Below are positions 7,520-64,000 of a stretch of 64,000 nt of DNA, in pieces; positions within the stretch are counted from its first letter, which is position 1, and each line of letters begins with the position of its first letter. Origin of the DNA: a virus; the IMG/VR virus record IMGVR_UViG_3300032323_003754, positions 1 through 64,000 of that record; one strand, 5' to 3'. Position numbers and translations under genes: made by a program. The notes below the pieces were generated by a model that was not told the origin of the DNA, did no database searches, and was given only the letters and a program-made list of their open reading frames with translations.

Positions 7520-7525
7520 TATATA
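7518..7525 (+). promoter_or_regulatory. Putative late promoter GATATATA inside the glycosylation cluster
   Basis: Exact motif 18 nt upstream of the ATG at 7544. Confidence 0.55.
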
Positions 7526-7543
7526 AAAAATAATAAAAAAAAA

Positions 7544-8665
7544 ATGTCCTTCGAAAAAATAAGAAGACTCAGGGTTTCTTTCGGTAACTTTTTAAAAGAA
7601 CCGGAAAAAGAAAAAGAAAATATCAAAAGCGTTGAGATTAAAAATAGACCCCTGAGCAGTATGACCCCTACCATTATTAGTTACTATTCAGATTTCAATG
7701 ATACCAAGTATTATGAGAATTTTGCTAATATCCTAACAGAAAGATGTAAATCCTTTAATGTACATCATGATATAAGTGAGCTACCGTCTAGAGGTAATTA
7801 TGGAGTTAACTGCCTAATGAAGCCCGAATTTATATTGAGTAAAATAAAAGAATACAAAAAACCTTTAATCTGGATGGACTGCGATACTGATTTTAGAGAA
7901 CCTTTCCCACAGTTTAACGAAGTTAAGGAAGATATAGGTATGGCAACGCATAGCGGGGATCTTGACGGAATCAAAGCATCCCCTTTATATTTCAATTATA
8001 CCAAAGGTGCTTTTAGAATAATAAGAGAATGGGTAGTCCATTGTAGAGCTTGTTATGACCAAGGAATAGTCGAACTTGATCATGATGCGTTAAAGCATTA
8101 TGTTCTAGATTTTTTAAATGGATCATATACATCTTATTTATTAACACACAACTGGAATGATTTTGTGCATGGACGTTATATCTGGAATGGGAATTCAAGG
8201 GTTGATGGAAAGATGCAAATACACAAAAAAGTTGGTGTAAGCGACGATGTGAGAAGATCTTATTCTAACGGAGTTAAATACATTAAATTGTTTTTTGAAT
8301 CTGAAAATGAAAAAGTATTTGAAAGTGCCTTGAATTTTTTAAACAAGTTTTCTAACAGATCTAGATTATCCTTTAACTTTTCTCCTAAGCTTCTATCTGT
8401 ATCTAAAAACAACGGGTACTTTAATTCACTTGAAATAGAATCAGGTGGATCCGTATATTTCGATGATATCGATTTTGATAATAATACTATTGGTAAAACC
8501 AATGTTTTAATTTCGGTCAATAACGTTAAAGACATAGAAAATGAATGGGATCTTAAAATACTATCAATGGTAGAAGGAGATGTTAATCCTCTTTATGAAC
8601 TAAATTTTAATGATGATGGTAAAGGCGGTATTAAAATAAAAACATCTAGAAAAATATGGATATGA
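7544..8665 (+). CDS. GT77-like glycosyltransferase with extra C-terminal domain
   Basis: NCLMKPEFI, LIWMDCD (DxD), ASPLYF, EW, DHDAL; paralogous pattern to 6941..7519. Confidence 0.65.
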   Translation: MSFEKIRRLRVSFGNFLKEPEKEKENIKSVEIKNRPLSSMTPTIISYYSDFNDTKYYENFANILTERCKSFNVHHDISELPSRGNYGVNCLMKPEFILSKIKEYKKPLIWMDCDTDFREPFPQFNEVKEDIGMATHSGDLDGIKASPLYFNYTKGAFRIIREWVVHCRACYDQGIVELDHDALKHYVLDFLNGSYTSYLLTHNWNDFVHGRYIWNGNSRVDGKMQIHKKVGVSDDVRRSYSNGVKYIKLFFESENEKVFESALNFLNKFSNRSRLSFNFSPKLLSVSKNNGYFNSLEIESGGSVYFDDIDFDNNTIGKTNVLISVNNVKDIENEWDLKILSMVEGDVNPLYELNFNDDGKGGIKIKTSRKIWI

Positions 8666-9513
8666 TAAAAGGAATAGGTATGCCTTTCCCTGCTGAATAC
8701 TCCTCCTGCTCAAATATTAAACCTAATTTATTTTCTTGGACTAGTGGGGAATCTGACTTACATGTTTATATAGATGATAAGATAATAGATGGATTATCTA
8801 CACCTAGACATGATTTAAAATTCGGATGGCTTTGTGAATCCCCTGCAATAGCACAGGATATTCATAGTGTAATTAGGGAAAATCCACAAAGATTTAAAAA
8901 CAAATATGCTGGTATATTTACCTGTGATGAAAGCTTACTGGTAGATCCATTTTTTATCTATGCTCCTCCTGGATCTAATCTTCCATGGGTTAAACCTGAT
9001 GAAATGAATCTCTATGAAAAATCTAAGGTTTGTTCTATGATATCCTCCCCGAAAGCAAGAACACAGGGACATCAGTATAGATTAGAGATAGCTGGATTAC
9101 TTAAAAATAAATTGGATCTCTTCGGAGGTGCACACGGGTCTCCTAGAATTGGCGAGGGGTCCGGACCTAATCAAGACTGGTGGAGGTCTAAGTTACCTGC
9201 AATAAAAGACTATATGTTTTCTGTTGTTTTTGAGAACACCACACACGACAAATACTACACCGAAAAAATAACAGACTGCTTTGCAACGGGTACTATTCCT
9301 ATTTACTGGGGCACAAGAAAGATAGTAGAAGATTTTAATCCTGATGGAATTATATTCTATAACTCTTCTTTTTCTATTGACGATCTAAATTCTAATTTGT
9401 ATTACAATAAAATGAACGCAATAAAAGAGAATTTAGAAATAGTAAAATCTATGAAATCATCAGATGATATTATTTACGAAAAAATAAAAAAAATAAGGAA
9501 TGCAAAAAGATAA
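8656..9513 (+). CDS. GT10-family fucosyltransferase-like protein
   Basis: DYMFSVVFENT..DKYYTEKITDCFATGTIPIYWG matches the alpha-1,3-fucosyltransferase motif. Confidence 0.8.
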   Translation: MDMIKGIGMPFPAEYSSCSNIKPNLFSWTSGESDLHVYIDDKIIDGLSTPRHDLKFGWLCESPAIAQDIHSVIRENPQRFKNKYAGIFTCDESLLVDPFFIYAPPGSNLPWVKPDEMNLYEKSKVCSMISSPKARTQGHQYRLEIAGLLKNKLDLFGGAHGSPRIGEGSGPNQDWWRSKLPAIKDYMFSVVFENTTHDKYYTEKITDCFATGTIPIYWGTRKIVEDFNPDGIIFYNSSFSIDDLNSNLYYNKMNAIKENLEIVKSMKSSDDIIYEKIKKIRNAKR

Positions 9514-10138
9514 AACAATATTGGTAACATCTTTTTATATTCCCGAAAGAGAAGACAGGTTAAGGGAATTAGAATATTGTATTGATAGAAATAATAAAAA
9601 CACACTAATAGATTTAATAGTTCTTGTCGTAGAAGAGGGAACCCCTGAAAATCTAATTCCTGCTATAAAAAAGGCAAAAATAGAATGGGTCTCTAAAAGG
9701 CCAACATATCAGGATCTTTTTAATATTGCTCTGAACAATATAGAGGAATCAAAAGGATTCATGATAATAGCCAACAGCGATATCTTTTATATGAAAGAGG
9801 ATATTGCTAAGATGAAAGAAAGAATAGAGGATAAAGATGTCTTTGCTCTTTCCCGTTGGGAATTTAATTTTAGAAAACCTCATACACATCATGACACTTG
9901 GGATAGTCAAGACAGCTGGATTTTTAAAAATACGATTCTATCTGGTAACTATGATATAAAACTTGGAATTCCTGGATGCGACAATAAAATAGCATATGAA
10001 TTACAAGAAGCTGGACACACGATTAAAAACCCTTCTAAGTCTATAAGATCCTATCATTTTCATAAATCGGAATATAGGACATACGTTGAAGATGATAGAA
10101 TAGAAGAACCTTATTTATTTATTAATACCGAAGAATGA
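9500..10138 (+). CDS. Putative glycosyltransferase-related protein
   Basis: IIANSDI, ALSRWE, SQDSWIF, LGIPGCDN, YHFH pattern typical of viral GT-like proteins; operon context. Confidence 0.5.
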   Translation: MQKDKTILVTSFYIPEREDRLRELEYCIDRNNKNTLIDLIVLVVEEGTPENLIPAIKKAKIEWVSKRPTYQDLFNIALNNIEESKGFMIIANSDIFYMKEDIAKMKERIEDKDVFALSRWEFNFRKPHTHHDTWDSQDSWIFKNTILSGNYDIKLGIPGCDNKIAYELQEAGHTIKNPSKSIRSYHFHKSEYRTYVEDDRIEEPYLFINTEE

Positions 10139-10791
10139 GCAAAATAGATTTAAAAAGGATAACTGCAGTTTGCATAGATGGAAGACCTTACGATGAAGCA
10201 AGGTACGGGAGATATAATATTATTCTTAATTTCTTTCTTGCAAATATAGAATTTGGTTCGGTAAAAATGATAACAACACGCAATCCTGGTATAGAAGGAG
10301 TTTCGCATATTAAAATAGATGAGTTTGATATATCGGGTTATTCCAAATTCTGTCTGCATGAATTAACAAGACATGTTGATACAGAATTCTGTCTTATCTT
10401 CCAGGACGATGGATTTATTGTTAATCCAAACGCATGGAATGATTTATTTTATGATTATGATTATATAGGATCTCCCTGGCCACTTTACATGGGCTGGCCA
10501 AAAGAAGGACAACAAGTAGGTAACGGAGGATTTTCACTCAGAAGTAAAAAACTCCTCGAATTTACTAAGACATTCGCTGAACATTCCACACAGAACGAAG
10601 ATACCTATATAGTTTCAGATAGAAGGGAATCAGTAATTAATGCTGGATTAAAAATAGCTCCTGTTGAAATTGCTAGATTATTTTCAGTAGAAAACCCAAT
10701 TGATAATGAGCATAATATCAATACATGTTTCGGATTTCATAGCAAAAACAAGACAGAAGACGCGATCGAAAAAATAAACACACATGAGTAG
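10135..10791 (+). CDS. DUF5672-like putative glycosyltransferase
   Basis: LIFQDDG, YDYIGSPW, VGNGGFSLRS, NED, A..FSVE, FGFH. Confidence 0.75.
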   Translation: MSKIDLKRITAVCIDGRPYDEARYGRYNIILNFFLANIEFGSVKMITTRNPGIEGVSHIKIDEFDISGYSKFCLHELTRHVDTEFCLIFQDDGFIVNPNAWNDLFYDYDYIGSPWPLYMGWPKEGQQVGNGGFSLRSKKLLEFTKTFAEHSTQNEDTYIVSDRRESVINAGLKIAPVEIARLFSVENPIDNEHNINTCFGFHSKNKTEDAIEKINTHE

Positions 10792-11551
10792 AAAAATAAT
10801 AGAATGCATGCCATTTTTTAATGAACTAGATTTATTAGAAATGAGACTTGAAATAACCTCAGATTATGTAGATTATTGGGTAATTAGTGAATCTAATAGA
10901 ACTTTTTCTGAAATAGAAAAACCACTATACTTAAAAGAAAATTTAGATAAAAGATTTTCTAAATTTAAAGACCGTATAATAAGAGTTGAATATGAATGTA
11001 AATCTGGTCCTTGGTGGAATGAATTCGGTTCAAGAAACTGTTTAGGAAAATATGTATTAGAAAACTTTAATCAGGATGATTTAATAGTTCTAGCCGACTG
11101 TGATGAAATCCCAGATTATCGTAAAATAGATTTCAATTCTCAGTTTCCAGCAATAGTTGAGACTAAGGGTTATTATTACTATTTGAATTGCAAACAAAAT
11201 GAGAATTTTAGAATAGTATCAATATTCCCGGTATCCTATTTAAATGAGATAGAAACGTACAGGATGAGAGCATGTGCTGGTATGGATGTTCCCGTAATAG
11301 AAAATGCTGGATGGCATTGGAGTTTTTTAGGTGGTGCAGAAAAAATATCAGAAAAAATAAAAGCCTATGCACATCAAGACATGAATATCCCAGAATATTC
11401 CGATGTTGACAAAATAGAAAAGAGACTATCAGATCTTAGTGATGTATTTGATAGATCTTTAGGGTATAAGATAGTTGATATAGACGACACATTCCCTGAT
11501 TATGTTGTAAACAACCAAGAAAAATTATCGAATTTTATATTTAAAAAATGA
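10784..11551 (+). CDS. GT17-family (beta-1,4-GlcNAc transferase-like) glycosyltransferase
   Basis: FFNELDLLEMRL, VISESNRTFS..KP, ADCDEIP, GWHWSFLGG, KIKAYAH. Confidence 0.82.
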   Translation: MSRKIIECMPFFNELDLLEMRLEITSDYVDYWVISESNRTFSEIEKPLYLKENLDKRFSKFKDRIIRVEYECKSGPWWNEFGSRNCLGKYVLENFNQDDLIVLADCDEIPDYRKIDFNSQFPAIVETKGYYYYLNCKQNENFRIVSIFPVSYLNEIETYRMRACAGMDVPVIENAGWHWSFLGGAEKISEKIKAYAHQDMNIPEYSDVDKIEKRLSDLSDVFDRSLGYKIVDIDDTFPDYVVNNQEKLSNFIFKK

Positions 11552-12204
11552 ATTTAGAATGTGTAAAAATTCTTGAATCTATAAACGATTTAGATACCAA
11601 GGATAAATTAATAGAATGGGTTAGATCAACAGCCGGATCAAGTAACGTTGATTATTTTATGTGCGAAAAATCTGGGGGATTAAGATTACAACAGGTCCCT
11701 GAAGAATATGCTGCTGTTCTTTTCGAGATTAAATCCTTAAATCCAAAGTCATATTTAGAAATAGGAATAGGAAACGGGGGATCCTGGATGACTTGCTCTT
11801 ATTTTTTAAGACACAGTCTTGAAAAATCCAGAGCAGTTGATAATTTAGCATATTATCAGGCAATAGATCAAAAAATAGAAGAGATAGAATTTGTCGAAAG
11901 CTTTTTAAGATCCACGATAAATGATGTTTCTTTTTTTAATTCCGATTCTAAAATTTTTCTAGAGGGTCACGATGAAAAATATGATGTTATTTTCATAGAC
12001 GGAGATCACAGTTACGAGGGGGTTAAAAAAGATTTTTTAAAATGCCTAAGAAATATAAACCCGGAAGGTGCTATGATTTTTCATGATATAGCTTCCGTGG
12101 GTGCTCCTGGGGTTGTACAATTCTGGGAGGAAGTCAAGACCCAATACAAAAACAGGGAATTTATTCATAGCAATACCTGTGGTATGGGAATAATTTATTT
12201 TTAA
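11548..12204 (+). CDS. Class I SAM-dependent methyltransferase (Methyltransf_24-like)
   Basis: YLEIGIGNGGS, YDVIFIDGDHSYEGVKKD, IFHDI, GV..FW. Confidence 0.85.
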   Translation: MNLECVKILESINDLDTKDKLIEWVRSTAGSSNVDYFMCEKSGGLRLQQVPEEYAAVLFEIKSLNPKSYLEIGIGNGGSWMTCSYFLRHSLEKSRAVDNLAYYQAIDQKIEEIEFVESFLRSTINDVSFFNSDSKIFLEGHDEKYDVIFIDGDHSYEGVKKDFLKCLRNINPEGAMIFHDIASVGAPGVVQFWEEVKTQYKNREFIHSNTCGMGIIYF

Positions 12205-12210
12205 AAACAA

Positions 12211-12822
12211 ATGGCAACATTAACAGTAGTAGTAGCATCTTATAAGTACGGACATCTAGCAGCTCATTGTTTAGAAAGTTTGCAGTCTCAGTCAGTCTAT
12301 CCAGACGAGGTGCTATTCGTCGATGATGGTGTTGGTGATTGTTTACATCTGCCTAAAATTTATAAAGATGTCAAATATACATTCAGAGAAAAAAACCTAG
12401 GCGTTATAGATAACTTTCAGGATATGCTTTCGAAGGTTAAAACCGATAAATGTATGTTTTTAGGTGCAGATAACTGGTTAAGATCTAATGCTATAGAAAT
12501 CTTACTAAAACCTAAGACCGACATAGTTTGTTATGACATAATATTAACAGGACCTAAAAAGGAAGATATAGCGCATAACTATGGATATCAAAAAAAGATC
12601 TATGGCGATTATTATTGGTCAAGATTTGGTCAACATCACGGATCAATGGTTTACAATACTGAGATGGCAAAATCTGTTGGTGGATACAGAGGACATAACG
12701 GAAGAAACTCAAACGAAGATGAAAATCTATGGTCAGATCTATTAAAAGCCGGTGCAACAGTGAAACACATAAAACAAGGATTACTTTACTACAGAAGACA
12801 CCATCAAAATTATAATCAGTAA
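12211..12822 (+). CDS. GT2-family glycosyltransferase
   Basis: TVVVASYKYG, EVLFVDDG, NLG, FLGADN, GGY, ED..LW, YYRRH. Confidence 0.8.
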   Translation: MATLTVVVASYKYGHLAAHCLESLQSQSVYPDEVLFVDDGVGDCLHLPKIYKDVKYTFREKNLGVIDNFQDMLSKVKTDKCMFLGADNWLRSNAIEILLKPKTDIVCYDIILTGPKKEDIAHNYGYQKKIYGDYYWSRFGQHHGSMVYNTEMAKSVGGYRGHNGRNSNEDENLWSDLLKAGATVKHIKQGLLYYRRHHQNYNQ

Positions 12823-12827
12823 ATTAT

Positions 12828-13457
12828 ATGTACAGTCAATTAGGAGAAGACGAGATAATATTAAAATATTTCTCGGATTTTAAAGAAAAATACGGCTCAT
12901 TTCTATCTAATAATATTTTAGATATAGGAGCTAATGATGGGATTACCATATCAAATACCAGAGCCCTTATATTAAAATATGGGGAGATAAAAGGATACTT
13001 TGTAGAACCTAATCCTATATGTTTTGAAAAGTTAAGAGAATTATACGGTGAATCTCATAATATTTACAATTTTGCAATATCCGATAGTGAAGGTAGAATG
13101 GAAATGTATTGCAACGGCAGTCATTTATCTAGTTCTGATAATGGATTATTATCAACCCTTGTTTTAGAAGAAACTAAAAGATGGGGAGATGAAAAATGGG
13201 ATCTAGTAGAGGTTGATGTTAAAAGATATCCATTCGGCGAAATAAACTTTGATTTTATATCAATTGATACCGAGGGTATGGACGAAACCATTCTTTTTCA
13301 AATTGATCTATTAAAAACGTGGATGCTTTGTATAGAATGGAATTCAAATCAGGAAAGAAAAAACACAATAGATAATTACTGTAAAAAATTCTCCATGAAT
13401 CTTCTGCATGAAAATGACATAAATCTTATTTATACCAAAACACCTAATGGGTTTTAA
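12828..13457 (+). CDS. FkbM-family methyltransferase
   Basis: MYSQLGED, LDIGANDG..ISNT, VEPNP, FDFISIDTEG. Confidence 0.85.
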   Translation: MYSQLGEDEIILKYFSDFKEKYGSFLSNNILDIGANDGITISNTRALILKYGEIKGYFVEPNPICFEKLRELYGESHNIYNFAISDSEGRMEMYCNGSHLSSSDNGLLSTLVLEETKRWGDEKWDLVEVDVKRYPFGEINFDFISIDTEGMDETILFQIDLLKTWMLCIEWNSNQERKNTIDNYCKKFSMNLLHENDINLIYTKTPNGF

Positions 13458-13479
13458 TTCTGTTAATAAAAAAACAAAG

Positions 13480-14415
13480 ATGAAAAAGAAAATTGCAATA
13501 TTTGGAGGGACTGGTTTAGTTGGATCTAGTTTGGTTAAAAAATTAGACACTAAAAAATACGAGGTTTATGCCCCGACCCGGGCGGATTTGGATCTATTTG
13601 ATGGTAAAAAAGTATCAGACTGGTTTACAGAAAACAAGGTAGAACATGTAATATTAGCAGCAGCAAGAGTTGGAGGCATAGTTGCTAATTCTACATACCC
13701 AACTGAATTTCTGTATGAGAATTTAAGTATACAAAATAACATCATAATGTCCGCTTTAAAAAGTGGAGTTGAAAATCTTATATTTTTAGGCTCATCTTGC
13801 ATATACCCAAGGGAATGTCCTCAGCCAATTAGAGAAGAATATCTTTTAACCGGACCTTTAGAAAAAACAAATAAGTCTTATGCTCTTGCAAAAATTGCAG
13901 GAATACAGCTTTGCGATTCTATAAGGGAGCAGTATAGAAAAAATTATTATTCTCTAATGCCGTGTAATCTTTATGGACCTGGTGATAACTTTGATTTAAA
14001 TGCATCTCATGTTATTCCGGGAATGATCCGAAAAATAGAGAATGCTAGAGATAATAATGAACCAACACTTAAATTACTAGGAACTGGAAGACCCCTCAGA
14101 GAATTTCTTTATATCGAAGATCTAGCAGATGGCGTGATATTTATGCTAGAAAATTATAAAGGAACTGAAGGATTAATTAACGTGGGAAGCGGGACTGAAG
14201 TATCCATAAAAGATCTAGCAAATATAGTTGCTCGTTCCATAGGATACAAAGGAGAAATTCTATTTGATACTGAGGGATTAGACGGAACCCCTAGAAAAAT
14301 AATGGACAATTCAAAGATAGAATCTTTAGGTTGGAAACCTAAAATGACCCTAGAAATGGGAATAGAAGAAACCATTAAATGGTATTGGGATAATAAAGAT
14401 AAAGTTAGAAAATGA
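13480..14415 (+). CDS. fcl: GDP-L-fucose synthase
   Basis: [58 protein letters not shown]; likely start MKKKIAIF at 13480 (ORF open from 13447). Confidence 0.93.
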
Positions 14416-15419
14416 AAACAGCGTTAATCACAGGGGTAAATGGACAGGATGGATCATATTTAGCAGAGTTACTTCTGAATAAAGGGTATATGGTTCATGG
14501 CACGATTAGAAGATCCTCGTCGTTCAATTCGGGAAGAATCGAGCATTTCAGAGAGCATCCTAATTTTAAAAGACACTATATGGATCTAACTGATTCGGGA
14601 AACGTCTCCCATATAATTTCACAACTAAAACCTGACGAGATCTATAATTTAGCTGCTCAGAGCCATGTTAAAATCTCCTTTGATATTCCAAATTATACTG
14701 GACAGGTTGATGCTATGGGAACACTAAATGTTCTGGAAGCAATCAGAACACATTCCCCAAATTCTAAATTATATCAGGCTTCTACGTCAGAATTATATGG
14801 TAAGGTTCAAGAAACCCCCCAGAAAGAAACAACCCCATTCTATCCTAGATCTCCGTATGGAGTTGCTAAATTATATGGATATTGGATTGTTAAAAATTAT
14901 AGAGAATCATATAATCTTTTTGCATGCAATGGAATTCTTTTTAATCACACATCACCACGTAGGGGTGAAAACTTCGTAGAAAAAAAAATTATAGATTCTC
15001 TTTGTCAAATCAAAAAAGGAAAAGTAGACATATTAACATTGGGTAACCTTTCTGCTCGTAGAGATATAGGACATGCAAAAGAATATGTTGAAGGAATGTG
15101 GAGAATGTTACAATTAGATTCTCCGGAAGATTTTGTTCTAGCAACTGGCGAGACATATTCCATTAAAGAAATGGTTAATATGGTGTGTAAAAAACTCGAT
15201 TTAGATATAGAATGGAAAGAAGGAGGGGAACAAGAAATTGCAATAAACAAATCCACTGGTAGGGTTATTATAGGAATAGATCCTAAATATTATAGACCAG
15301 CAGAGGTTGAGATTTTACAGGGAGATGCTTCTAAAGCTAAATCGCTATTAGGATGGGAACCAAAACTATCTCTGTCAGAAATATTTGATGAGATGATAGC
15401 AGAATCACTAAAGGATTAG
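14412..15419 (+). CDS. gmd: GDP-mannose 4,6-dehydratase
   Basis: [62 protein letters not shown]. Confidence 0.95.
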
Positions 15420-43396: not shown

Positions 43397-43485
43397 AAAA
43401 TTGTTGGTTTTTTTAATAGAAACTAATGTATATTTTACTGTATGATCTCTACATGAAGGATTTATTTCTTCATTCAAGCTTATTT

Positions 43486-55927: not shown

Positions 55928-58900
55928 ATGCCGCAAATAAACATACTAAATATTCTTCCTGGTGATCAACAATCAATACTAGTTGACAAGGTTAATTATA
56001 ACTTTGACCAGATATTAACAGCTGGTGGAGGACCACAAGGACCGCAAGGTATTAGGGGTGCTACAGGGGCTATAGGACCTCAAGGAATTCAGGGACCTAC
56101 CGGACCTCAGGGATTAAGAGGAGCTAGATGGTACGTACAGCCATCTGCACCAGCTACTGGAAATCTTTTAAATACCCCTTGGGGGGAACCTGAACTTGGA
56201 GATTATTGGCTTTCTGGAACAAGCGATGCTAATCCTCTTGGCGTATATGTTTATGATGAAACCGTCCCAGGAACACTTAATTGGGTATATTCTAATGTTT
56301 CTTTTAACAATACATCGGTATTTACTGCTATTGATAATCTGAATAACACAAATGACAGGGCTTTAATTCACGATACGGAGTTTAGTAATAAATATGGACT
56401 AGTTCTTAGTGATTACGGTGTTGTTGGCGGGGAAACTAATTTCAATTATGATTCTGCATTTGTTAGTAAATTTACAATAAACGCAGAAAGAGCTAAATTA
56501 AAAATAGCTACTGATCCTGTGCAGGGTGCATCATCTTTGATTTCATTTGGTCGTGCAAATCTGGATAACGCAAACGGAGAAACTGGAGCTTCTTTCAGTC
56601 AAGGACACAACCCAAGATTTCAATGGAAAGTACCAGCCGCAACGAATGCTAATTATGATATTCAATTTTTTAGCCCCGTTGGAAATTTCGAGATACTTGC
56701 ATCTGCTAGCACGTTTGGTGTAACTGGAGCAAATATTAGAATGTATGCTTCCTCTAATATAACATTAATAGGAAATACATTTACAATCACTAGAACAGGA
56801 GCGGGTAACACATATACCTCTACAGGGACTGGAACTTATGATGTGAGTGGATCTCAAATAAGATTTTCTCCAACATACACAGATACTATAGGTAATTTTA
56901 TAGTTGGAGACGCTGTTAATACTGGTGGATCTAAAGGTATAGTTATTTCAACATCTGCAAATACCCCAGGAAGATCCTTAGTATTTAAAAGTCATCAATC
57001 TTTAGCTACTGATTCTGCTTATGGTAAAATAGCAGCAGAAAAGCAAAACGGAACATCCCCGGTTTCTAGTATAGGGTTTGTAGCAGATGGTACAGGTACA
57101 AGAATAGATTTTTCTGTAAGTAACGGAAGTTCAAACGATTTAAATAGATTAAGACTTGATAAAGATGGTAACCTACAATTTAGAGCGGTTGATTCTTCGA
57201 TTTATATGCAGGACGTTGGTACTGGTGCTGCCGGATTAAATCTTTCTATATCTGCAGGATCAGGTGGAGGCGGTGGTAATCTGATACTAAACGGAGGATC
57301 CGTTCCTGGAGGATTTACAAGCGGTAAGGTTATTATAAATCCCGGAGCAGTTGCTTCGGGGTCTGGATCTAGTCTTGGTAGTGTTTATTTACATACTACC
57401 CAATCCAATAAAACAAACGTCAGTGGTGTTTCTATAGGAATAGATTCTAACACATCAGTTGATGCAGCATTAGTAGTTGCAGATACCAACTATAACATAC
57501 CTGCAGGAGATATATTCGAGCTTAAAACGTATGCACAAAGAGCAATTGCTAGAAACACGGATCTTTCAGTTGATACCTCTCATTTCTTTGGATTTGACGG
57601 AGATGGGTATGCAACTAAGGGCTTACCGTTCAACCCGACACTTGGATCTGGTGGATATGCATTATCCTCTGATAATTATAATTTGGACTATTATGCAGAA
57701 GGGGATTGGAACAGTAGTTTATCTCTAACTACTATAGGATCAGTTGCTGGCTGGGATTCAAGTAAATATAAAATAGTTAAATCTAGATTCACAAGAATAG
57801 GTGATACTGTTCAAGTGGATTTTGTTATAAAAATTGATTCTCTAACTTCCGGCATTGCTACACCTTCTCCTGCATCTAATGGATTTATGTATATTTCTGG
57901 ATTTCCTTATTCCCCAGATTTTAGTAGAGTTAGATTAGGAACTGCAACCAACTTATACACAGCACCTGCTATGCCACTTGTATCGATTAAAGGATCCGGA
58001 TTTGGTAATTCCATTAATACCGGAGGAGGAAATCCAGTAGGGACTATACAAATATATCCTGGTGCTAATATACCTGCAGGATGGCTAACCTGCGACGGGT
58101 CTGCTATATCAAGAACAACGTATGCTGATTTATTTGCGTCAATAGGAACAACCTACGGGAATGGTGACGGTGGAACAACATTTAACCTTCCAGATTTAAG
58201 AGGTAAATTTATTAGAGGTTTAGGTGGAAATTCGTTGGGATTAACAGAAACACAGGCTGATGAGATAAAATCTCACTCTCACGTTCTTAATTACAAAAAA
58301 GGAGCATCCGACGATAATGAATCAGGAATCTCTGGAGAATATATGAGAAAACTCGGTGCAGGAGGGGGATCCAATTATGGTAATGGAACAACTACCACGG
58401 AAACTTCAGGAAGCGGCATAGAAACCAGACCGGTCAATATGGCAATGAATTACATTATCTATGCCGGATCTACGTCAGGGGCTTCAACACAGACTGAACT
58501 TTCTGGTGCATTTGTTAACGAGAGTAATGGAAGATTTTATATCTATAATGGAAGCGGTAATTTGAACGTTTCTAATGTTCCTGCAGGAACTGGGGTTACC
58601 TCATATTTATATGGTAGTTTTAGTTATTTCACACTAAGTTCTACTACTTACAGTGGAATTGCTACTCCTAGTCCGATGGCACCACCACCTTCTCCAACTC
58701 CGACACCAACTCCGACACCAACACCGACGCCAACACCAACACCGACGCCAACACCGACGCCAACACCGACGCCAACACCGACTCCAACGCCAACACCGAC
58801 TCCAACGCCAACACCGACTCCAACGCCGACTCCAACGCCACAGCTATATTATTATCTTGTAGAAACTTGTGGTGGAGGTGAGCAATTTTATATTAGTACG

Positions 58901-59134
58901 AGTACCCAAACTGATATAGGTAATGCAGTTAAGGTAAATGGAGTATGCTGTTTGGTAATTTCAACCGATAGTACTGGTACGGCCCTAGTGGATGAAACTA
59001 AATATATAGATTGCTCTGCATGTAATTCAGGGACTCCACCACCATCACCAGCACCAAGCCCAGGTGGCGGAGAAACACCAACGCCATCACCAACACCAGG
59101 AGGGCCGGGAGGAGAAGAAATACCTAATCCTTAA
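55928..59134 (+). CDS. Tail fibre: collagen-like segment, tail-collar domain, Pro-Thr linker, Cys-rich C-terminal module
   Basis: KVNYNFDQI N-terminus; GPQGPQGIRGATGAIGPQGIQGPTGPQGLRG; PVGTIQIYPGANIPAGWLTCDGSAISRTTYADLFASIGTTYG.GDG.TTFNLPDLRGKFIRG collar; (PT)24. Confidence 0.85.
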   Translation: MPQINILNILPGDQQSILVDKVNYNFDQILTAGGGPQGPQGIRGATGAIGPQGIQGPTGPQGLRGARWYVQPSAPATGNLLNTPWGEPELGDYWLSGTSDANPLGVYVYDETVPGTLNWVYSNVSFNNTSVFTAIDNLNNTNDRALIHDTEFSNKYGLVLSDYGVVGGETNFNYDSAFVSKFTINAERAKLKIATDPVQGASSLISFGRANLDNANGETGASFSQGHNPRFQWKVPAATNANYDIQFFSPVGNFEILASASTFGVTGANIRMYASSNITLIGNTFTITRTGAGNTYTSTGTGTYDVSGSQIRFSPTYTDTIGNFIVGDAVNTGGSKGIVISTSANTPGRSLVFKSHQSLATDSAYGKIAAEKQNGTSPVSSIGFVADGTGTRIDFSVSNGSSNDLNRLRLDKDGNLQFRAVDSSIYMQDVGTGAAGLNLSISAGSGGGGGNLILNGGSVPGGFTSGKVIINPGAVASGSGSSLGSVYLHTTQSNKTNVSGVSIGIDSNTSVDAALVVADTNYNIPAGDIFELKTYAQRAIARNTDLSVDTSHFFGFDGDGYATKGLPFNPTLGSGGYALSSDNYNLDYYAEGDWNSSLSLTTIGSVAGWDSSKYKIVKSRFTRIGDTVQVDFVIKIDSLTSGIATPSPASNGFMYISGFPYSPDFSRVRLGTATNLYTAPAMPLVSIKGSGFGNSINTGGGNPVGTIQIYPGANIPAGWLTCDGSAISRTTYADLFASIGTTYGNGDGGTTFNLPDLRGKFIRGLGGNSLGLTETQADEIKSHSHVLNYKKGASDDNESGISGEYMRKLGAGGGSNYGNGTTTTETSGSGIETRPVNMAMNYIIYAGSTSGASTQTELSGAFVNESNGRFYIYNGSGNLNVSNVPAGTGVTSYLYGSFSYFTLSSTTYSGIATPSPMAPPPSPTPTPTPTPTPTPTPTPTPTPTPTPTPTPTPTPTPTPTPTPTPTPTPTPQLYYYLVETCGGGEQFYISTSTQTDIGNAVKVNGVCCLVISTDSTGTALVDETKYIDCSACNSGTPPPSPAPSPGGGETPTPSPTPGGPGGEEIPNP
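58694..58840 (+). repeat. 6-bp-period coding repeat, (Pro-Thr)24-Pro
   Basis: CCRACN units, 49 codons, preceded by APPPS. Confidence 0.95.
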
Positions 59135-59164
59135 TAGAGGCTATTAATTCTAAATTTAATTAAT

Positions 59165-59452
59165 ATGAATAAGCAGGAAACTGAAAAAATAAAATCGATA
59201 ATAAATAATTATAAATCGATCCACCAAGAACTTAATTCCTATGAAAAAAGATTAGAAAATATGTCTTTAGGAATTGAGGAGAAACTCGAAGATGAGATCT
59301 TCTTAGTTGGGAGTAAAATTAAAAAGTGTATAAAAAAACTAGAAGACGAAAGAATTCTGGAAAGAAAATTCTATTCATCCCTTGAAAAAAAATATGGGCC
59401 GGGTGAATTGGACATAAATACTTTAGAATATAAAAGTAAAAAGACAATATAA
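59165..59452 (+). CDS. Small coiled-coil hypothetical protein
   Basis: 95 aa ending LEKKYGPGELDINTLEY; follows the tail fibre. Confidence 0.65.
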   Translation: MNKQETEKIKSIINNYKSIHQELNSYEKRLENMSLGIEEKLEDEIFLVGSKIKKCIKKLEDERILERKFYSSLEKKYGPGELDINTLEYKSKKTI

Positions 59453-59460
59453 AATTAATC

Positions 59461-60216
59461 ATGAAGGAAGTAAAACAAAAAGTTGAAAAACAGATAGAGG
59501 TTGTACAAAAATTTAAAAATAATAATATAAAGCTTCTTGTAGTAGCAGCTCTTTTTATATTAGCGTTTTTACTATATGGTACATTTAGCAATAACTATCA
59601 CAAAAAAGAAATCAAAGCTCTTGAGAATGAGATTAGTGTAGTCCAAAAGAAGTTTGATGCTGCAGTAGAAGAAAAAGAAAAATTAAGAGATTCTTCCGAG
59701 ACCTACGAGGATTTGGCCAAGGAGGAAGGGATAAGAGCTGACATTTTTAGAGCAAAAGCTGCAAAGGAGAAAAAAGATAAGGAAGCAGCTTTAGCAGCAT
59801 TACAAAATTTACCAAAAGATGTGATTGATACATTTTTTATTAAAAGATACGCAGAAGTTCCTAAATCTGACATTGGTTTAGAATTAGACAAAAACGTAGG
59901 TAATGCTATAGTTGTAGAATTAGTTGAAAAAGATCATTTAGTTGGACAATTAGCAACTTCTGAGAATTTGGCAGTAACCCTTACATCCCAGGTTAATACT
60001 TTACAGACCTCTTTAAATTTTTCTAAATTGGCTCTTGTGAGTGCAGATTCTGCAATCGTAGCTAGATCTAAACAATTTGAATTACAACAGCAGGTAAGTA
60101 ATCTATTAAAACAAGATTTAAAAGAAGCTAAGAAAAAAGCCTTTTGGAACAAAATAAAAGGAACTGCAGTAGGTGTAGCAGTTGGTTTAACTGTAGGTCT
60201 TATTGCAGTAAAATAA
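59461..60216 (+). CDS. Membrane-anchored coiled-coil protein (possible spanin-like lysis protein)
   Basis: N-terminal TM LLVVAALFILAFLLYGTF, long coiled coil, C-terminal hydrophobic GTAVGVAVGLTVGLIAV. Confidence 0.5.
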   Translation: MKEVKQKVEKQIEVVQKFKNNNIKLLVVAALFILAFLLYGTFSNNYHKKEIKALENEISVVQKKFDAAVEEKEKLRDSSETYEDLAKEEGIRADIFRAKAAKEKKDKEAALAALQNLPKDVIDTFFIKRYAEVPKSDIGLELDKNVGNAIVVELVEKDHLVGQLATSENLAVTLTSQVNTLQTSLNFSKLALVSADSAIVARSKQFELQQQVSNLLKQDLKEAKKKAFWNKIKGTAVGVAVGLTVGLIAVK

Positions 60217-60301
60217 TTTTTAGCGAATGTCCATAGATAGAAAGCAATCGGTTAAATCCGTGCGGAAATTCGGTATGATATTATTGGATGATAGAAAACT
60301 T

Positions 60302-60309
60302 GATATATA
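60302..60309 (+). promoter_or_regulatory. Putative late promoter GATATATA
   Basis: 7 nt upstream of the ATG at 60317. Confidence 0.45.
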
Positions 60310-60316
60310 AAAGAAT

Positions 60317-62653
60317 ATGTCAAGTTTCACCTATACCAGTAAATTCTTTAGTCTAGCTCCTTATTTATTAATGGAGTACAGGTACGGTAGTCAGCCTAAT
60401 CCTGAATTTCATCCCGTAAGCTTCGGAGCATCTGCGGTTGGGTTTGAAAAGATAACCAATGGATATTTAAACGGAGCAGTTCAAATCCTTAATAGAGACG
60501 AGGATACACAAACTACAGGAAACGTAAGGGATAGGAGTTCAGTTCAAATCTCCCAAAACACCTTTGTTAGACTCGATATTGATAGATCTGTCCAGTATTT
60601 AGATTATGATGATAAATTAACTAATGTATCAAATCTACCGGTAGCATTTGAAAGCAATCTAAACGTTTATTATGATACCGTAAGATATCACTTTTTAAGC
60701 GGATTTGATTTTGGAGCCAGGGACGGAGCTATTCTACAAATTCAATTTTCCGAAAGAAATGGTAAGAAATCTACAGTTTCCCAAATAACATACGAAAAAG
60801 GGGATATTGATATTACTACACCAAATCCTACCCCTATTTATTTTAATGCTGGTATTTACGATCATTTTATAGAAGTAAAGATCCCATCATATTCACAGAT
60901 AACTTATGAGTATGACACCCAGGTAAATGCTGCTACTGCATCACAAACTACTGCTGCTAAAATAAGCTCTGACGGATCTGGATTTATTAGAAATCAGCCA
61001 TTTAATGTTACTCTATTTGAAATAGAATCTACTCAGGATTTAAATGGGTTCTATTATTACCAGACATCCATAAATAGTATAGCTACTATAACTCCTACGG
61101 ACGAGTATTCTGAATTAGCAGCTAACGTAACGGAAAACACAGATTTTGATTACTTCGAATATTATCCTAGCTGGAAAGGTAATTTTATCGAGGATTTCAT
61201 TTATACTGAAAGTTCACTTGGAAATATCTATTACATAATACATGACGTAGAGCTGCTTGAGCAGGTTGGATTGAGAAGAATTTCAACACAAAAAATTCAA
61301 GTACTTCAGGATAAGGATTTTAATGCACCATATATTTATAGACCAGTAGTAATGAGCCCAAAGGCAACTAGTTTTTCTATTAATTACTCTATGAGACTAG
61401 TTAATAAATTTGACAACGTTTCTATACTAAGGGTAGCAACGCTAACAAGCACCGAGGTTGATAAGTATGGACCAGGCATTAAAAAAATCAATCTTTTAAA
61501 CCAGCCTTATCCACAGAAAGTTTATAATAAGGTTGTTGAACCTGTTGTTACCAAAGCATACACACTAAATGTTAATCCAATAGAAAGAGTAATAACTAAA
61601 TACGTTCCTGCTTTCTTCGAAAGGGAAAACATAAATATTACGGAAGAGAATCTAACAATAGATAGCCTAGGCGGATTAACACAATCAACTACTTCTGATT
61701 CCACTGTCGCTTTTGGCCAGGGTAAATCCAAAATAGTAGTAAATCCGTATGATAACTATTATAAGTTTAGAATATTTACCAAGAATGATGGAAAAGAAAA
61801 TACGGTATTAGATCTTGGTACTAATTCAGACTTTTATCTAGTTTTTGAAGGAGGAGACAGCAAGACTGTTAGAATTTCAAGTTTATCCGATAGCACCTTC
61901 CAAAATCCAAATAAAGGAGAATTGGTTTTCAGAGTGGTTGAAGCGGATTCTAAAAAAATATCATCCTTTACCGAAAGAAATTTTCACATCGTTTCCAAAA
62001 CAAATAATGGGATAGAAACATCGATCTATCATGGATACTGGATACTTCCTTCGGAGAGAGATCAAAAACCGATTGCCGAACCTGTTGTTACACCAGCTCC
62101 AGCACCAACTCCTGTTGTAATAGCTTCTGTTCAAAACACAACAACACCAGTTGTCGATGTCATTCCACAGCAACCTAAAGATTACTTTGATATAAAAAAT
62201 GATGCTGTAGTATTGAATGTTGAACCTGCTGTAATTAAACAAACACCAGAGGTTCAGCCACCAGTGGTTAAGCCAAGACTTAAAGCAGATCTAGATACCC
62301 TTGCTAATCTAATTAGCACTGATGAGTCAGCAGGAAAAAGTTTTAGTCAGATTGCAGATTACTATACCGTACCAGGAAATCCTGGAAATCTATTATATGA
62401 GGGAATAAGTGTTACATTCTTCTTGAATGCAGTTAGGCTGGTACATCCAGATACAGATGGACAAAGAAGCACTCAATTTATCCAATACTCTAATTACCTA
62501 GGAGTAATCTATGAGCCATTTGAAAATCAGAGATATAGCGCAGGAGGCGGAGGTGGAATACCACAGTATTTCAACGATGGAGGATATGGTGTGGATAGAA
62601 GGGGATTCAACGAAAATAATGACTCAGGTCAGGGACAAACTTTTTATTTATAG
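60317..62653 (+). CDS. Probable virion structural protein
   Basis: 778 aa; beta-rich N-terminal part, Pro/Val/Thr-rich linker (PVVTPAPAPTPVV), low-complexity C-terminus. Confidence 0.55.
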   Translation: MSSFTYTSKFFSLAPYLLMEYRYGSQPNPEFHPVSFGASAVGFEKITNGYLNGAVQILNRDEDTQTTGNVRDRSSVQISQNTFVRLDIDRSVQYLDYDDKLTNVSNLPVAFESNLNVYYDTVRYHFLSGFDFGARDGAILQIQFSERNGKKSTVSQITYEKGDIDITTPNPTPIYFNAGIYDHFIEVKIPSYSQITYEYDTQVNAATASQTTAAKISSDGSGFIRNQPFNVTLFEIESTQDLNGFYYYQTSINSIATITPTDEYSELAANVTENTDFDYFEYYPSWKGNFIEDFIYTESSLGNIYYIIHDVELLEQVGLRRISTQKIQVLQDKDFNAPYIYRPVVMSPKATSFSINYSMRLVNKFDNVSILRVATLTSTEVDKYGPGIKKINLLNQPYPQKVYNKVVEPVVTKAYTLNVNPIERVITKYVPAFFERENINITEENLTIDSLGGLTQSTTSDSTVAFGQGKSKIVVNPYDNYYKFRIFTKNDGKENTVLDLGTNSDFYLVFEGGDSKTVRISSLSDSTFQNPNKGELVFRVVEADSKKISSFTERNFHIVSKTNNGIETSIYHGYWILPSERDQKPIAEPVVTPAPAPTPVVIASVQNTTTPVVDVIPQQPKDYFDIKNDAVVLNVEPAVIKQTPEVQPPVVKPRLKADLDTLANLISTDESAGKSFSQIADYYTVPGNPGNLLYEGISVTFFLNAVRLVHPDTDGQRSTQFIQYSNYLGVIYEPFENQRYSAGGGGGIPQYFNDGGYGVDRRGFNENNDSGQGQTFYL

Positions 62654-62659
62654 TAGGTT

Positions 62660-63211
62660 ATGTTATTAAACTCTAGGCAGAATGGTTTTATATTTAATTT
62701 TCCTAAAGGATTCTTCTCGGATGCTTTAGAGGAAAAATATCATGGCTATGTTAAGAGGATGCCCATTCCTTATGACACATTAAGGGATTTTATGAATTCC
62801 ACAATTCAACAGGTTTCATTTCCAACGTTTCAAAGTATAGATAACGTAGAGCAAATTAGGCCAGGAGGATACAAGCAGAATTATAAAAGCTCAACAAACA
62901 TACAGAATCTGATACAAAGAAATTTCAGTGTTAGTTTTAAACTCGGTGAGGGATTTATCAATTATTGGATTATGTACGAAAGCATTGTTAATTTCCTGGA
63001 TTTCAGTAACCCAGAACAGGTTCTTCCAGATTTAACCCTAAGACTTCTTGATCACGAGGGTATAATAATGTCCACTGTTTCTTTCCAGCAACCTATATAC
63101 ACATCTCTGTCAGAAGCTCAGTTGAACTACTCCAGCACTACTCCTCAATTCTCAACTTTCAGTGTTGGATTTAGATGTAACTATGTAGATATTAAATTGG
63201 AGATAGGATAA
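62660..63211 (+). CDS. Possible tail-tube terminator/completion protein (gp3/gp19-fold-like)
   Basis: 183 aa; IQQVSFP...FSVSFKL.EGFINYWIMY...LTLRLLD...PIYTSLS..LNYSS...FSVGF pattern. Confidence 0.4.
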   Translation: MLLNSRQNGFIFNFPKGFFSDALEEKYHGYVKRMPIPYDTLRDFMNSTIQQVSFPTFQSIDNVEQIRPGGYKQNYKSSTNIQNLIQRNFSVSFKLGEGFINYWIMYESIVNFLDFSNPEQVLPDLTLRLLDHEGIIMSTVSFQQPIYTSLSEAQLNYSSTTPQFSTFSVGFRCNYVDIKLEIG

Positions 63212-64000
63212 TTATCTAAAATACCATTCCCTTATTAGGTTATAGAAATCATTATTAGGAAAATCAGCTATATTATGATTTGGAAATGATGATTTTTTAA
63301 ATAGTGGATCACAGGAGTAATGTGCAAAATAGTGATTTTCCCTATTAAACCCATTTACGTTTGGAAAATATGTATTATCTTGACTTATACATTTTATTCT
63401 ATTATTGTGGCAAGCAATCTGGAATGCCCACATTTGCATCCACCAACCAAAAGGACTTTCTAGATAATTTCTAGCTATTAAGATGCTTAGATCTATAACT
63501 TCTTCGATTATTTTTTTTAATGTTTTAATCCTTATTATAACAGGAACAAATCCTCCATCCATGTATTCATACTCCTTGTGTTTTAGGTATGGTTCAACAA
63601 CATAGAAATTTTTCTTGGACGGATCTTTCATAAACATGTGCCAATCCTCGTACATATTACAGGTCACTACTTCTCCTTCACCTGGTAATATACCATCATA
63701 TTTTTTAAGGGAAATTACGTCGCAGTCTACTATACATAAAAATTCTTCCTCATTAAGATCTGATATTATTTGATTGATTGCAAAAAATAAATTTCCTGCG
63801 GAAAAATAAGAATGATTATCAGATTCAGAAAGAACCGAATGTATGCCCTTTACTATTTTGTAGGGTATATTTATATTCCAGTCTACCTCTTTAACTATGT
63901 TCCCGTGCGAATTTCTATCCACTATTAACAGGGTAGAATTTAATGCTGATTGTGTACCGTATACTTTTTTTTGCGCATATTGGAATAAACTGCTTTGCCA
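63212..64000 (-). CDS. GT-A glycosyltransferase resembling hydroxyproline O-arabinosyltransferase (HPAT/GT95) or GT96; 5'-truncated
   Basis: Frame open to the window end (WQSSLFQYAQKKVYG...); EEFLCIVDCD, PVIIRIKTLKKI, FGWWMQMWAFQIA, FAHYS parallel the HPAT motifs WQ...YY, EEYIL..EPD, SPVII...L.KI, FGWVLEMYAY.VA, IIHYT as recalled. Confidence 0.55.
   Translation of the reverse strand, partial: WQSSLFQYAQKKVYGTQSALNSTLLIVDRNSHGNIVKEVDWNINIPYKIVKGIHSVLSESDNHSYFSAGNLFFAINQIISDLNEEEFLCIVDCDVISLKKYDGILPGEGEVVTCNMYEDWHMFMKDPSKKNFYVVEPYLKHKEYEYMDGGFVPVIIRIKTLKKIIEEVIDLSILIARNYLESPFGWWMQMWAFQIACHNNRIKCISQDNTYFPNVNGFNRENHYFAHYSCDPLFKKSSFPNHNIADFPNNDFYNLIREWYFR

Follow-up and report, generated by a model that had tools for sequence, protein, structure and literature searches.

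A remote phage relative of plant hydroxyproline O-arabinosyltransferases and its possible role in tail fibre glycosylation

Introduction

Does a phage use a relative of the plant hydroxyproline O-arabinosyltransferases (HPATs) to decorate its own tail fibre? The question is raised by IMG/VR virus record IMGVR_UViG_3300032323_003754, 83,213 bp of an uncultured jumbo phage (CheckV completeness 30%), the first 64,000 bases of which form the stretch analysed here and are referred to as the window. Two of its genes are at issue. One encodes a tail fibre (55928..59134, plus strand), the candidate acceptor. The other, on the minus strand at 63212..64000, encodes an HPAT-like, soluble glycosyltransferase (GT) of the GT-A type, hereafter the transferase. 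The window holds its C-terminal 262 codons and leaves the gene open at the edge; in the record it is complete (63212..64042, 276 aa). A preliminary description of the window had already placed the truncated gene about 4 kb from the fibre, and the stop-to-stop distance is indeed 4.08 kb.

The answer reached below has parts of unequal strength. Across other phages, the transferase family is coupled to a prolyl 4-hydroxylase (P4H) homologue and to tail proteins with Pro-Thr/Ser repeats. For this phage the link between transferase and fibre is circumstantial, and we give roughly even chances to the proposal that the enzyme acts on the (TP)24 and PPPSP segments of the fibre.

Homology to plant HPAT enzymes

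The transferase passes the threshold of the Pfam entry HPAT (PF23452, 'Hydroxyproline O-arabinosyltransferase family') with an E-value of 4.2e-12 and 46.5 bits against a cut-off of 23.9. The alignment covers 243 residues, pairing positions 8-250 of the protein with 7-249 of the 307 profile positions, and the only other Pfam match is to DUF6492 at E 0.02. No match was obtained among PHROG families, in a tblastn search of 50,697 phage records or, with phmmer at E <= 10, among PDB sequences. A word-indexed search retrieved 47 homologue clusters of about 275 aa, unnamed or labelled 'hypothetical', of which 34 carry PF23452. The nearest clusters in the ESM Atlas likewise consist of viral proteins labelled 'hypothetical protein'; 10-40% of their members carry PF23452, and they add no function. 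In an exhaustive search of 1.84 billion representatives the family profile found just 91 proteins at E <= 0.001, of which 43 reached 1e-30 or better, so that the family is a compact one.

The same search reached, at E 3.1e-6, a protein of Brassica cretica (P0124) whose UniRef name is 'Hydroxyproline O-arabinosyltransferase-like domain-containing protein' and which itself scores 545.8 bits on PF23452. Alignment of the phage family with this protein by hhalign gave a probability of 82.7% over 82 columns at 26% identity, the columns spanning the GF.PVII..L.KI, FGW..M and HY..CD blocks. Since the Pfam profile matches the transferase and the phage profile in turn reaches the plant protein, remote homology is seen in both directions. 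Judged by these alignments, the transferase is a true, if remote, sequence relative of plant HPAT/SGT1-type enzymes, and the likeness that the preliminary description had put forward is borne out. The five ordered motifs on which that likeness was based (WQSSLFQY, EEFLCIVDCD, PVIIRIKTLKKI, FGWWMQMWAF and HYFAHYSCD) all occupy conserved positions when 32 sequences of the family are aligned.

Predicted structure and conserved residues

The AlphaFold2 model of the transferase (predicted local distance difference test, pLDDT, 96.0; predicted TM-score, pTM, 0.92) is a single globular GT-A domain comprising all 276 residues. Because the first β-strand starts at residue 2, the protein is predicted to have no membrane anchor; the type II anchor expected of a GT95 HPAT is absent from the model. 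Among PDB structures, Foldseek ranked GT6 α-1,3-galactosyltransferase and ABO transferases best (E ~2e-6, TM ~0.52). A search independent of Foldseek was headed by LgtC (GT8; Z 15.5, root-mean-square deviation 3.7 over 229 aligned residues) and also returned glycogenin (Z 14.9), WbbM, the UGGT catalytic domain, the Skp1 α-galactosyltransferase 6mw8 (Z 14.0), BoGT6a and A64R of the chlorovirus PBCV-1 (2p6w, Z 13.2). All of these are GT-A proteins and the top ones are retaining enzymes, with the GT8, GT6 and GT24 families among the best. Since a sequence search of the PDB gave no GT95 or GT96 structure, the best folds necessarily come from other retaining GT-A families. Foldseek searches of BFVD returned generic GT-A matches only (TM ~0.4-0.64, identity 16% or less).

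Residues invariant in the 32 aligned members include D106, D108, W134, H135, G163, G164, W200, W201, H241, Y242, S243 and D245. The model thus combines a predicted GT-A fold with DxD-type residues (D106 x D108), and the invariant D106 x D108 and H241 blocks fit an active, metal-dependent enzyme. We picture the transferase as a soluble, cytoplasmic, metal-dependent GT-A enzyme from a branch of the plant HPAT/SGT1 superfamily that is specific to phages. Its most likely task would be to place the first O-linked sugar within X-Pro tracts of phage structural proteins, either ahead of assembly or while it proceeds.

The fold also bears on a quite different acceptor, namely DNA, with the transferase acting as a base glycosyltransferase on, for example, a hydroxylated pyrimidine. 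Such a role would suit its neighbours, the RuvC-like, gp32, UvsY and UvsW genes, which are recombination and replication genes, and T4-like phages do glycosylate their DNA, arabinose included, according to the available parts of two reports (PMC6024577, PMC13326640). In those parts, however, the RB69 and DLP3 proteins named as putative or confirmed DNA arabinosyltransferases resemble GT-B-type structures, RB69 ORF003c being explicitly predicted as GT-B (PMC13326640, PMC6024577), whereas the phage transferase is modelled as GT-A. No thymidylate-synthase-like hydroxymethylase or hydroxylase was found among the open reading frames (ORFs) of the record scanned with Pfam, and in other phages the family keeps company with P4H and protein-type transferases in modules of tail genes rather than with nucleotide genes. 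We consider DNA a very improbable acceptor. The narrower assignment as a DNA arabinosyltransferase was rejected, there being no homology support between this GT-A protein and the RB69 and DLP3 candidates, GT-B in the excerpted reports.

Linkage to a hydroxylase and to repeat proteins in other phages

IMG/VR was scanned with the family alignment and the best 80 of 95 confirmed loci were used; such scans may omit records very close to the window. Linkage was assessed with hidden Markov model (HMM) searches of six-frame translations, the gene calls in these loci being crude longest-ORF calls. The transferase HMM finds all 80 loci, and in 74 of them a partner is present, a 2-oxoglutarate and Fe(II)-dependent (2OG-Fe(II)) oxygenase homologous to P4H. 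The two genes are fused or at most 10 nt apart in 35 of the 74, within 2 kb in 73 and co-oriented in 71. Two of the six loci lacking a partner (L077 and L078) have less than 900 nt of upstream sequence. In metagenome contigs the pairing occurs at nine of 11 loci, the other two being cut too near the gene.

The partner is around 400 aa in size, with short forms of 184-189 aa also present. One example (L018:8095-9324) scores 61.9 bits on PF13640, and phmmer matches the partner to solved P4Hs from Bacillus anthracis (5iax, 1.9e-27), PBCV-1 (5c5t, 2.6e-15), Chlamydomonas (2jig, 8e-15) and human (C-P4H α-2, 7zsc, 4.9e-13), and to little else. On this basis the partner is identified as a P4H homologue with a PF13640 domain.

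A typical locus runs from one or more giant proteins through, in some, a small PT-rich protein to the hydroxylase, then optionally a GDSL-like protein, a GDP-mannose dehydratase or unknowns, and then the transferase. Downstream (3') lies either a protein of 400-600 aa that has a crAss muzzle domain at its C-terminus, followed by giant proteins, or a PF11397 'Glycosyltransferase (GlcNAc)' gene, GlcNAc being N-acetylglucosamine, with further sugar genes: a methyltransferase, a GT2-like gene, a GT7-like gene with a lectin-type domain, an aminotransferase and a radical SAM protein. Fusions join the transferase to the P4H itself (L080:10001-12163, 720 aa, with a PF13640-type domain), to GDSL (L009-L011), to PF11397 (P0055, P0062, P0068 and P0072), to a Cupin_8/JmjC hydroxylase-type domain (P0054, 664 aa, Cupin_8/JmjC E 4.8e-45) and, in one representative, to a methyltransferase. 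The HPAT-like domain has accordingly been fused to two different hydroxylase-type domains, Cupin_8/JmjC in P0054 and PF13640 in L080. As a separate observation, a 549-aa protein immediately 5' of the L003 cassette (L003:6543-8192) shows a weak Hint/intein-type domain.

A strict Pro-Thr/Ser tract was called wherever 20 consecutive residues held at least seven Pro and at least seven Thr or Ser, together no fewer than 17. Such tracts are present in 40 of the 80 loci, every one of these being among the 74 that bear a hydroxylase, and an ORF flanking the hydroxylase-transferase block carries a tract in 39 of the 74 by this rule and in 51 by a looser one. After dereplication, 23 of 42 transferase clusters have tracts as against two of 20 transferase-less control clusters (Fisher p 8e-4), the control being a single lineage dereplicated at 90% identity of its anchor protein. 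The co-occurrence with PT-rich proteins anticipated in the preliminary description is therefore found across the family, but it fails in the phage's own lineage, where fibre tracts are found without the transferase (8 of 41 loci, discussed below).

This arrangement suggests an ancestral role for the transferase as step two of a cassette, in which the P4H would make hydroxyproline and the transferase would add a sugar to it. The targets would be X-Pro repeats of phage tail proteins, modified in the host cytoplasm.

The tail fibre as candidate acceptor

The fibre is a protein of 1068 aa with a Phage Tail Collar domain (PF07484, E 5e-24) at residues 705-762 (58040..58213, plus strand). Of the 24 PHROG families matched at E <= 0.01, 16 belong to the tail category, which agrees with the assignment, as does a syntenic homologue in related phages. 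A collagen-like G-X-Y run of 11 triplets with five Pro lies near the N-terminus (residues 35-67; 56030..56128, plus strand), and short PHROG matches cover residues 32-67. Towards the C-terminus, residues 912-971 (58661..58840, plus strand) form the ATPSPMAPPPSP(TP)24 tract, a proposed glycosylation site or linker, reading ...GIATPSPMAPPPSP(TP)24QLYYY.... A small Cys-containing domain of about 60 residues follows (972-1031; 58841..59020, plus strand), and then a second Pro-rich tail, CNSGTPPPSPAPSPGGGETPTPSPTPGGPGG, at residues 1032-1062 (59021..59113, plus strand), reading ...NSGTPPPSPAPSPGGGETPTPSPTPGGPGG.... Both the APPPSP(TP)24 and the TPPPSPAPSP segments of the preliminary description are thus present in the translation. 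The codons over the (TP)24 stretch are mixed for Thr (ACA 10, ACT 9, ACG 8) as for Pro (CCA 17, CCG 11, CCT 2), so that the tract is not a perfect DNA microsatellite.

No other protein in the record has long Pro-Thr tracts; poly-Thr/Ser tags were also sought, and a single 11-residue run in a 1185-aa protein was all that was found. The APPPSP(TP)24 and TPPPSPAPSP segments would therefore be the only conspicuous candidate acceptor within 83 kb. We infer that the acceptor is a protein, that the fibre is the target and that hydroxyproline is the residue modified.

The transferase in its own lineage

The neighbours in the 80 transferase loci are unlike this phage's proteins, sugar-nucleotide enzymes excepted. 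When the phage's own lineage was scanned with the gp32-like gene as anchor, 41 syntenic loci emerged, with the order 1885-aa protein, fibre, proteins of 95, 251, 778 and 183 aa, RuvC-like, gp32, a 350-aa protein, UvsY and UvsW. Of these loci, 39 carry a plus-strand RuvC-like gene, whose product shares 36-42% identity with that of the minus-strand copy in this phage; in the other two, L133 and L134, the gene is on the minus strand (51% and 26% identity to the same copy, respectively). On either side, the 183-aa and gp32 proteins share roughly 45-87% identity with those of relatives. Given the low identity of the RuvC-like protein beside these higher values, the transferase and RuvC-like unit (record 63212-64723; RuvC-like, L002:52-723) appears to be a replaced segment. 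The replacement resembles a cassette swap at a recombination hotspot.

A maximum-likelihood tree was built from 73 distinct rows representing 91 sequences, identical ones being merged and a 152-aa fragment (L093) left out. It places the phage's own transferase as sister to those of L003, L005 and L006 with support of 99/95. In the 15-row clade that contains it, a hydroxylase accompanies every row except its own and L088, where the contig is cut 520 nt upstream. What this phage carries would then be a solo copy captured beside the RuvC-like gene, and the window shows the transferase moving between phage lineages on its own. The host is weakly hinted to belong to Bacteroidota, the nearest named phages by sequence being the Prevotella Lak phages, with which one helicase shares 37% identity.

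Does the transferase act on the fibre?

A number of observations weigh against fibre glycosylation by this enzyme. Neither the transferase (0/41) nor the hydroxylase (0/41) was found by HMM in the syntenic loci, and the family profile found nothing in all six lineage records searched (G008-G012 and G013), which include records of 219-248 kb (79-86% complete) and one of 374 kb (100% complete), although it found all four positive controls. The transferase is a solitary minus-strand gene beside the RuvC-like gene, facing gp32 and opposite in strand to the fibre. A late-type motif, (G/A)ATATATA, lies 0-40 nt before 22 of the 77 called genes, including the 778-aa gene and a collagen-like gene described below, and GATATATA is found 19 nt before the fibre start and 18 nt before the gene at 7544 in a cluster of glycan genes; before the transferase and the RuvC-like gene there are near-variants only. 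Being on the opposite strand and without this motif, the transferase gives no indication of co-expression with the fibre. A scan for sigma-70 promoters and terminators around the transferase was uninformative (eight promoter-like sites against 10.2 expected, no terminator).

The fibre tract, moreover, has a history of its own. In relatives that lack the transferase, homologous fibres carry (TP)n (L095, L096, L100 and L131), (TPAP)n (L094, L097 and L101) or PSPTPTPPTPP (L098 and L132), and a strict PT tract is present in eight of the 41 syntenic loci, all transferase-less. Because such relatives keep X-Pro tracts, the tract is independent of the transferase, and these sequences indicate that X-Pro tracts exist as plain linkers ahead of swapped C-terminal domains. 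That they pre-exist without the transferase constrains models of how tract and enzyme became linked. A BLAST search with fibre residues 971-1068 against all ORFs of the fetched loci found weak matches only (best E 0.002), to the C-terminal parts of giant PT-tract proteins adjoining the cassette in L071, L067, L069 and L091; the fibre is therefore not firmly tied to the cassette-flanking proteins. At the level of the family, a solo transferase without tract or hydroxylase nearby is found at six of the 80 loci, PF13640 has no match in the 299,853-bp record (68% complete) of one of them, and some family members, L018:9989-10822 for one, fall short of the Pfam HPAT entry at E 0.01.

The lineage fibres (L094-L132) share a conserved body and an X-Pro rod followed by unrelated C-terminal domains, a pattern resembling tip swapping. 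Some end in TPSPTPSP and then poly-Gly.

Much of the above could be accommodated if the transferase glycosylates something other than the fibre tract, with the nearby (TP)24 a coincidence. A collagen-like protein at the end of the record, a glycan made by the gene cluster at 6941..15419 and a host envelope or cytoplasmic protein are the candidates. The tracts of transferase-less relatives, the position of the transferase outside the fibre transcription unit and without the late-type motif, and the six solo copies would all be explained, and both the large glycan cluster and the collagen-like protein, 358 aa of largely G-A-T and G-E-T triplets, could serve. Yet what the family is linked to elsewhere is P4H and flanking X-Pro repeat proteins, and the phage's own transferase nests among hydroxylase-linked copies; the collagen-like protein has just eight Pro in 315 G-X-Y residues, and the glycan cluster is common to relatives that lack the transferase. 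An acceptor other than the fibre therefore seems to us possible but on the unlikely side.

A second alternative holds that the X-Pro tracts are unmodified linkers, flexible or rigid, and that the transferase is a recent accessory gene with little or no role, deprived of its hydroxylase partner. The swapped-in look of its segment, the failure to find P4H in 83 kb and the independence of tract and transferase in relatives speak for this. Against these stand an intact frame, the retention of all invariant family residues and a confident model. Homologue clusters at 92%, 79%, 77%, 74% and 73% identity exist, from which it follows that the gene has been maintained in a set of related sequences, and P4H genes occur elsewhere in relatives of the lineage. 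We regard an idle transferase and bare linkers as improbable.

For glycosylation of the fibre at hydroxyproline, the source of the hydroxylase is critical. The preliminary description had seen no prolyl hydroxylase in the window, and a PF13640 search that recovered the domain in four of four records known to carry one confirms this and extends it to the whole 83-kb record, a further point against a complete pathway here. When the search is widened beyond the record, however, PF13640 oxygenases appear elsewhere in the genome in all three large lineage records. G008 encodes a 221-aa P4H homologue followed by a GDSL-like gene (L143:9521-11001; hydroxylase HMM E 1.8e-40) and G009 a 184-aa PF13640 ORF (hydroxylase HMM E 3e-54). 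G008 and the present record are colinear at their 3' ends and both stop within the collagen-like gene, which places outside the record the part of the genome expected to hold the hydroxylase. The hydroxylase would thus come from beyond the record, where relatives carry one; otherwise Thr or Ser would be the acceptor.

The P4H-GDSL pair of G008 is the pair that precedes the transferase in L003-type cassettes, G008 itself having no transferase. Two further PF13640-type ORFs and a radical SAM gene lie near it, and a 624-aa G008 protein (L143:13606-15480) has clear Hint/intein-type domains (AXH, Intein_splicing and PT-HINT).

Phage-encoded glycosylation of the fibre, as first proposed, accordingly gains from the linkage to P4H and PT repeats in other phages and loses from the isolation of this phage's transferase, a lone copy absent from all 41 relatives.

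Sugar genes and a possible complete pathway

A plus-strand cluster of nine to eleven genes at 6941..15419, recognized by Pfam matches, is a possible extender of protein glycans. It comprises sub-threshold GT77-like, GT10-like, DUF5672, GT17-like, Methyltransf_24 and GT2 genes, an FkbM methyltransferase, a GDP-fucose-synthase-like epimerase/reductase and a GDP-mannose 4,6-dehydratase, the GDP-mannose dehydratase-type sugar genes lying at 13447..15419; no flippase or polymerase was seen in it. Parts of the cluster are kept at 68-82% DNA identity in the transferase-less G008, G009 and G010, and since it is shared with such relatives it belongs to the lineage rather than to the HPAT-like gene. The window had been credited with two GT77-like genes that might extend the glycan. 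Only one, at 6941..7519, touches PF03407 (GT77-type), with 20.5 bits against a 22-bit cut-off; a search of the record for the PF03407 family found none, and no second GT77-like gene is present among the Pfam-scanned ORFs. GT77 extension is left with this one sub-threshold match, in a cluster that transferase-less relatives also possess. Further against arabinosylation here, no gene for UDP-arabinose turned up in the scanned ORFs, the only sugar-nucleotide genes being those for the GDP-mannose dehydratase and the epimerase/reductase. None of these results speaks for arabinose as the sugar, and a glycan rod that stiffens the fibre or a bait for SusC/D receptors, as put forward in the preliminary description, would be speculative.

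A bolder proposal is that tailed phages modify their own fibres by a full plant-like route to hydroxyproline glycoproteins, located in the cytoplasm, this phage illustrating its piecemeal assembly. P4H would be followed by an HPAT-like and/or a PF11397-type initiator and then by methyl and fucosyl extension. Here a solo initiator would have joined a lineage already equipped with P4H genes and with a glycan cluster behind the late-type motif. The fibres of the lineage would carry interchangeable tips on (TP)n rods, the glycosylated rod serving as a protease-resistant, extended spacer. We hold this larger proposal to be rather doubtful.

Other genes of the record

Four plus-strand genes occupy the interval between fibre and transferase (59165..63211). 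They encode proteins of 95, 251, 778 and 183 aa without clear family, the 251-aa protein giving weak Rz-like and DivIC hints in Pfam and PHROG, and they are syntenic in transferase-less relatives. The collagen-like protein (record 82138-83213; L002:18138-19211; 358 aa) matches Pfam Collagen at E 3e-49 and consists mostly of G-A-T, G-E-T and G-T-S triplets; its Thr-rich triplets are a possible alternative glycan acceptor. The record ends within its gene, probably at an assembly break, since G008 also ends inside it.

Upstream of it, a family-B DNA polymerase ORF (L002:16123-17532) encodes 469 aa, with the exonuclease and the first third of the polymerase domain, and is followed by a MazG/dUTPase_2-like gene (L002:17535-18014), the two together spanning record 80123-82014. 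The short polymerase may be a split gene rather than an error, because the arrangement in G008 is the same at 90% identity. Positions 878-3778 of the window encode a 474-aa amidotransferase of the asparagine-synthase-like kind and, on the opposite strand, a 494-aa RimK-type ATP-grasp protein whose C-terminal part is Zn_protease-like. Between the gene for a 2548-aa protein and more large structural genes sits a minus-strand PhoH-like gene (42716-43477).

Comparison with known systems

The closest parallel is the plant and algal pathway, in which P4H is followed by HPAT (GT95, on hydroxyproline) or SGT1 (GT96, on Ser) and then by GT77 enzymes. The phage transferase is homologous to the HPAT Pfam family, other phages pair it with a P4H homologue beside X-Pro repeat proteins, and the fibre of this phage has PPPSP-type motifs. 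GT95 and GT96 are related, and the plant HPAT enzymes are Golgi type II membrane proteins, according to the accessible text of one report (PMC8012813). Membrane-anchored in the Golgi, they differ from the phage enzyme, modelled as a soluble protein of 276 aa, and this record is without P4H, a credible GT77 partner or visible UDP-arabinose genes. We do not file the transferase as GT95 because, although sequence and fold agree with the HPAT superfamily, the Golgi membrane topology does not, and its acceptor is a candidate one.

The Skp1 pathway of Dictyostelium and Toxoplasma offers a second comparison. It is cytoplasmic and proceeds from the P4H PhyA through the GlcNAc-transferase Gnt1 to later Gal-transferases, modifying one Pro of one protein. 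The hydroxylase-then-transferase logic of soluble cytoplasmic enzymes is the same. Cassettes of other phages often add a gene of PF11397, presumably the Gnt1/GT60 family, or fuse PF11397 to the HPAT-like domain, and the transferase model aligns with the Skp1 α-galactosyltransferase (6mw8, Z 14.0). In contrast, the likely phage acceptors are long repeats in virion proteins, and the window has no PF11397 gene.

Among viruses, chlorovirus PBCV-1 has its own P4H (5c5t, which matches the partner of other phages at E 2.6e-15), its own GT-A enzymes (A64R, 2p6w, Z 13.2) and GDP-mannose dehydratase-type genes like those at 13447..15419. It is, however, a eukaryotic giant virus, and no protein in BFVD comes structurally close to the phage enzyme (best TM ~0.5-0.6). 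The capsid glycans of PBCV-1 are N-linked; to our knowledge, none is known on hydroxyproline and no HPAT-type enzyme has been reported. In mycobacteriophages, virion O-glycosylation affects Ser/Thr-rich C-terminal tags of capsid and tail-tube proteins, with no hydroxylase step. There too the phage supplies glycosyltransferases that modify its own virion proteins while in the cytoplasm of the host, but the transferase families and hosts are others.

O-glycosylation of hydroxyproline is considered characteristic of plants, green algae and a few protists, and virion glycosylation by phage enzymes is, as far as we know, documented only for a few actinobacteriophages. Literature searches found nothing on a phage hydroxyproline O-arabinosyltransferase or on PF23452; in titles and the first parts of abstracts, they found no published description of a phage cassette of P4H and HPAT-like enzyme and, for GT95 and viruses, nothing on viruses' own enzymes. 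Hydroxylase, transferase and repeat tail proteins together suggest that phages glycosylate their fibres by a route not described before. If this is true, the widespread cassette beside repeat tail proteins would constitute a new class of virion modification, one that could affect fibre stiffness, resistance to proteases or immunity, and host recognition. With no solved structure of a plant HPAT-superfamily enzyme found by sequence search of the PDB, the phage enzymes would also offer small, soluble and easily expressed relatives of the plant HPATs.

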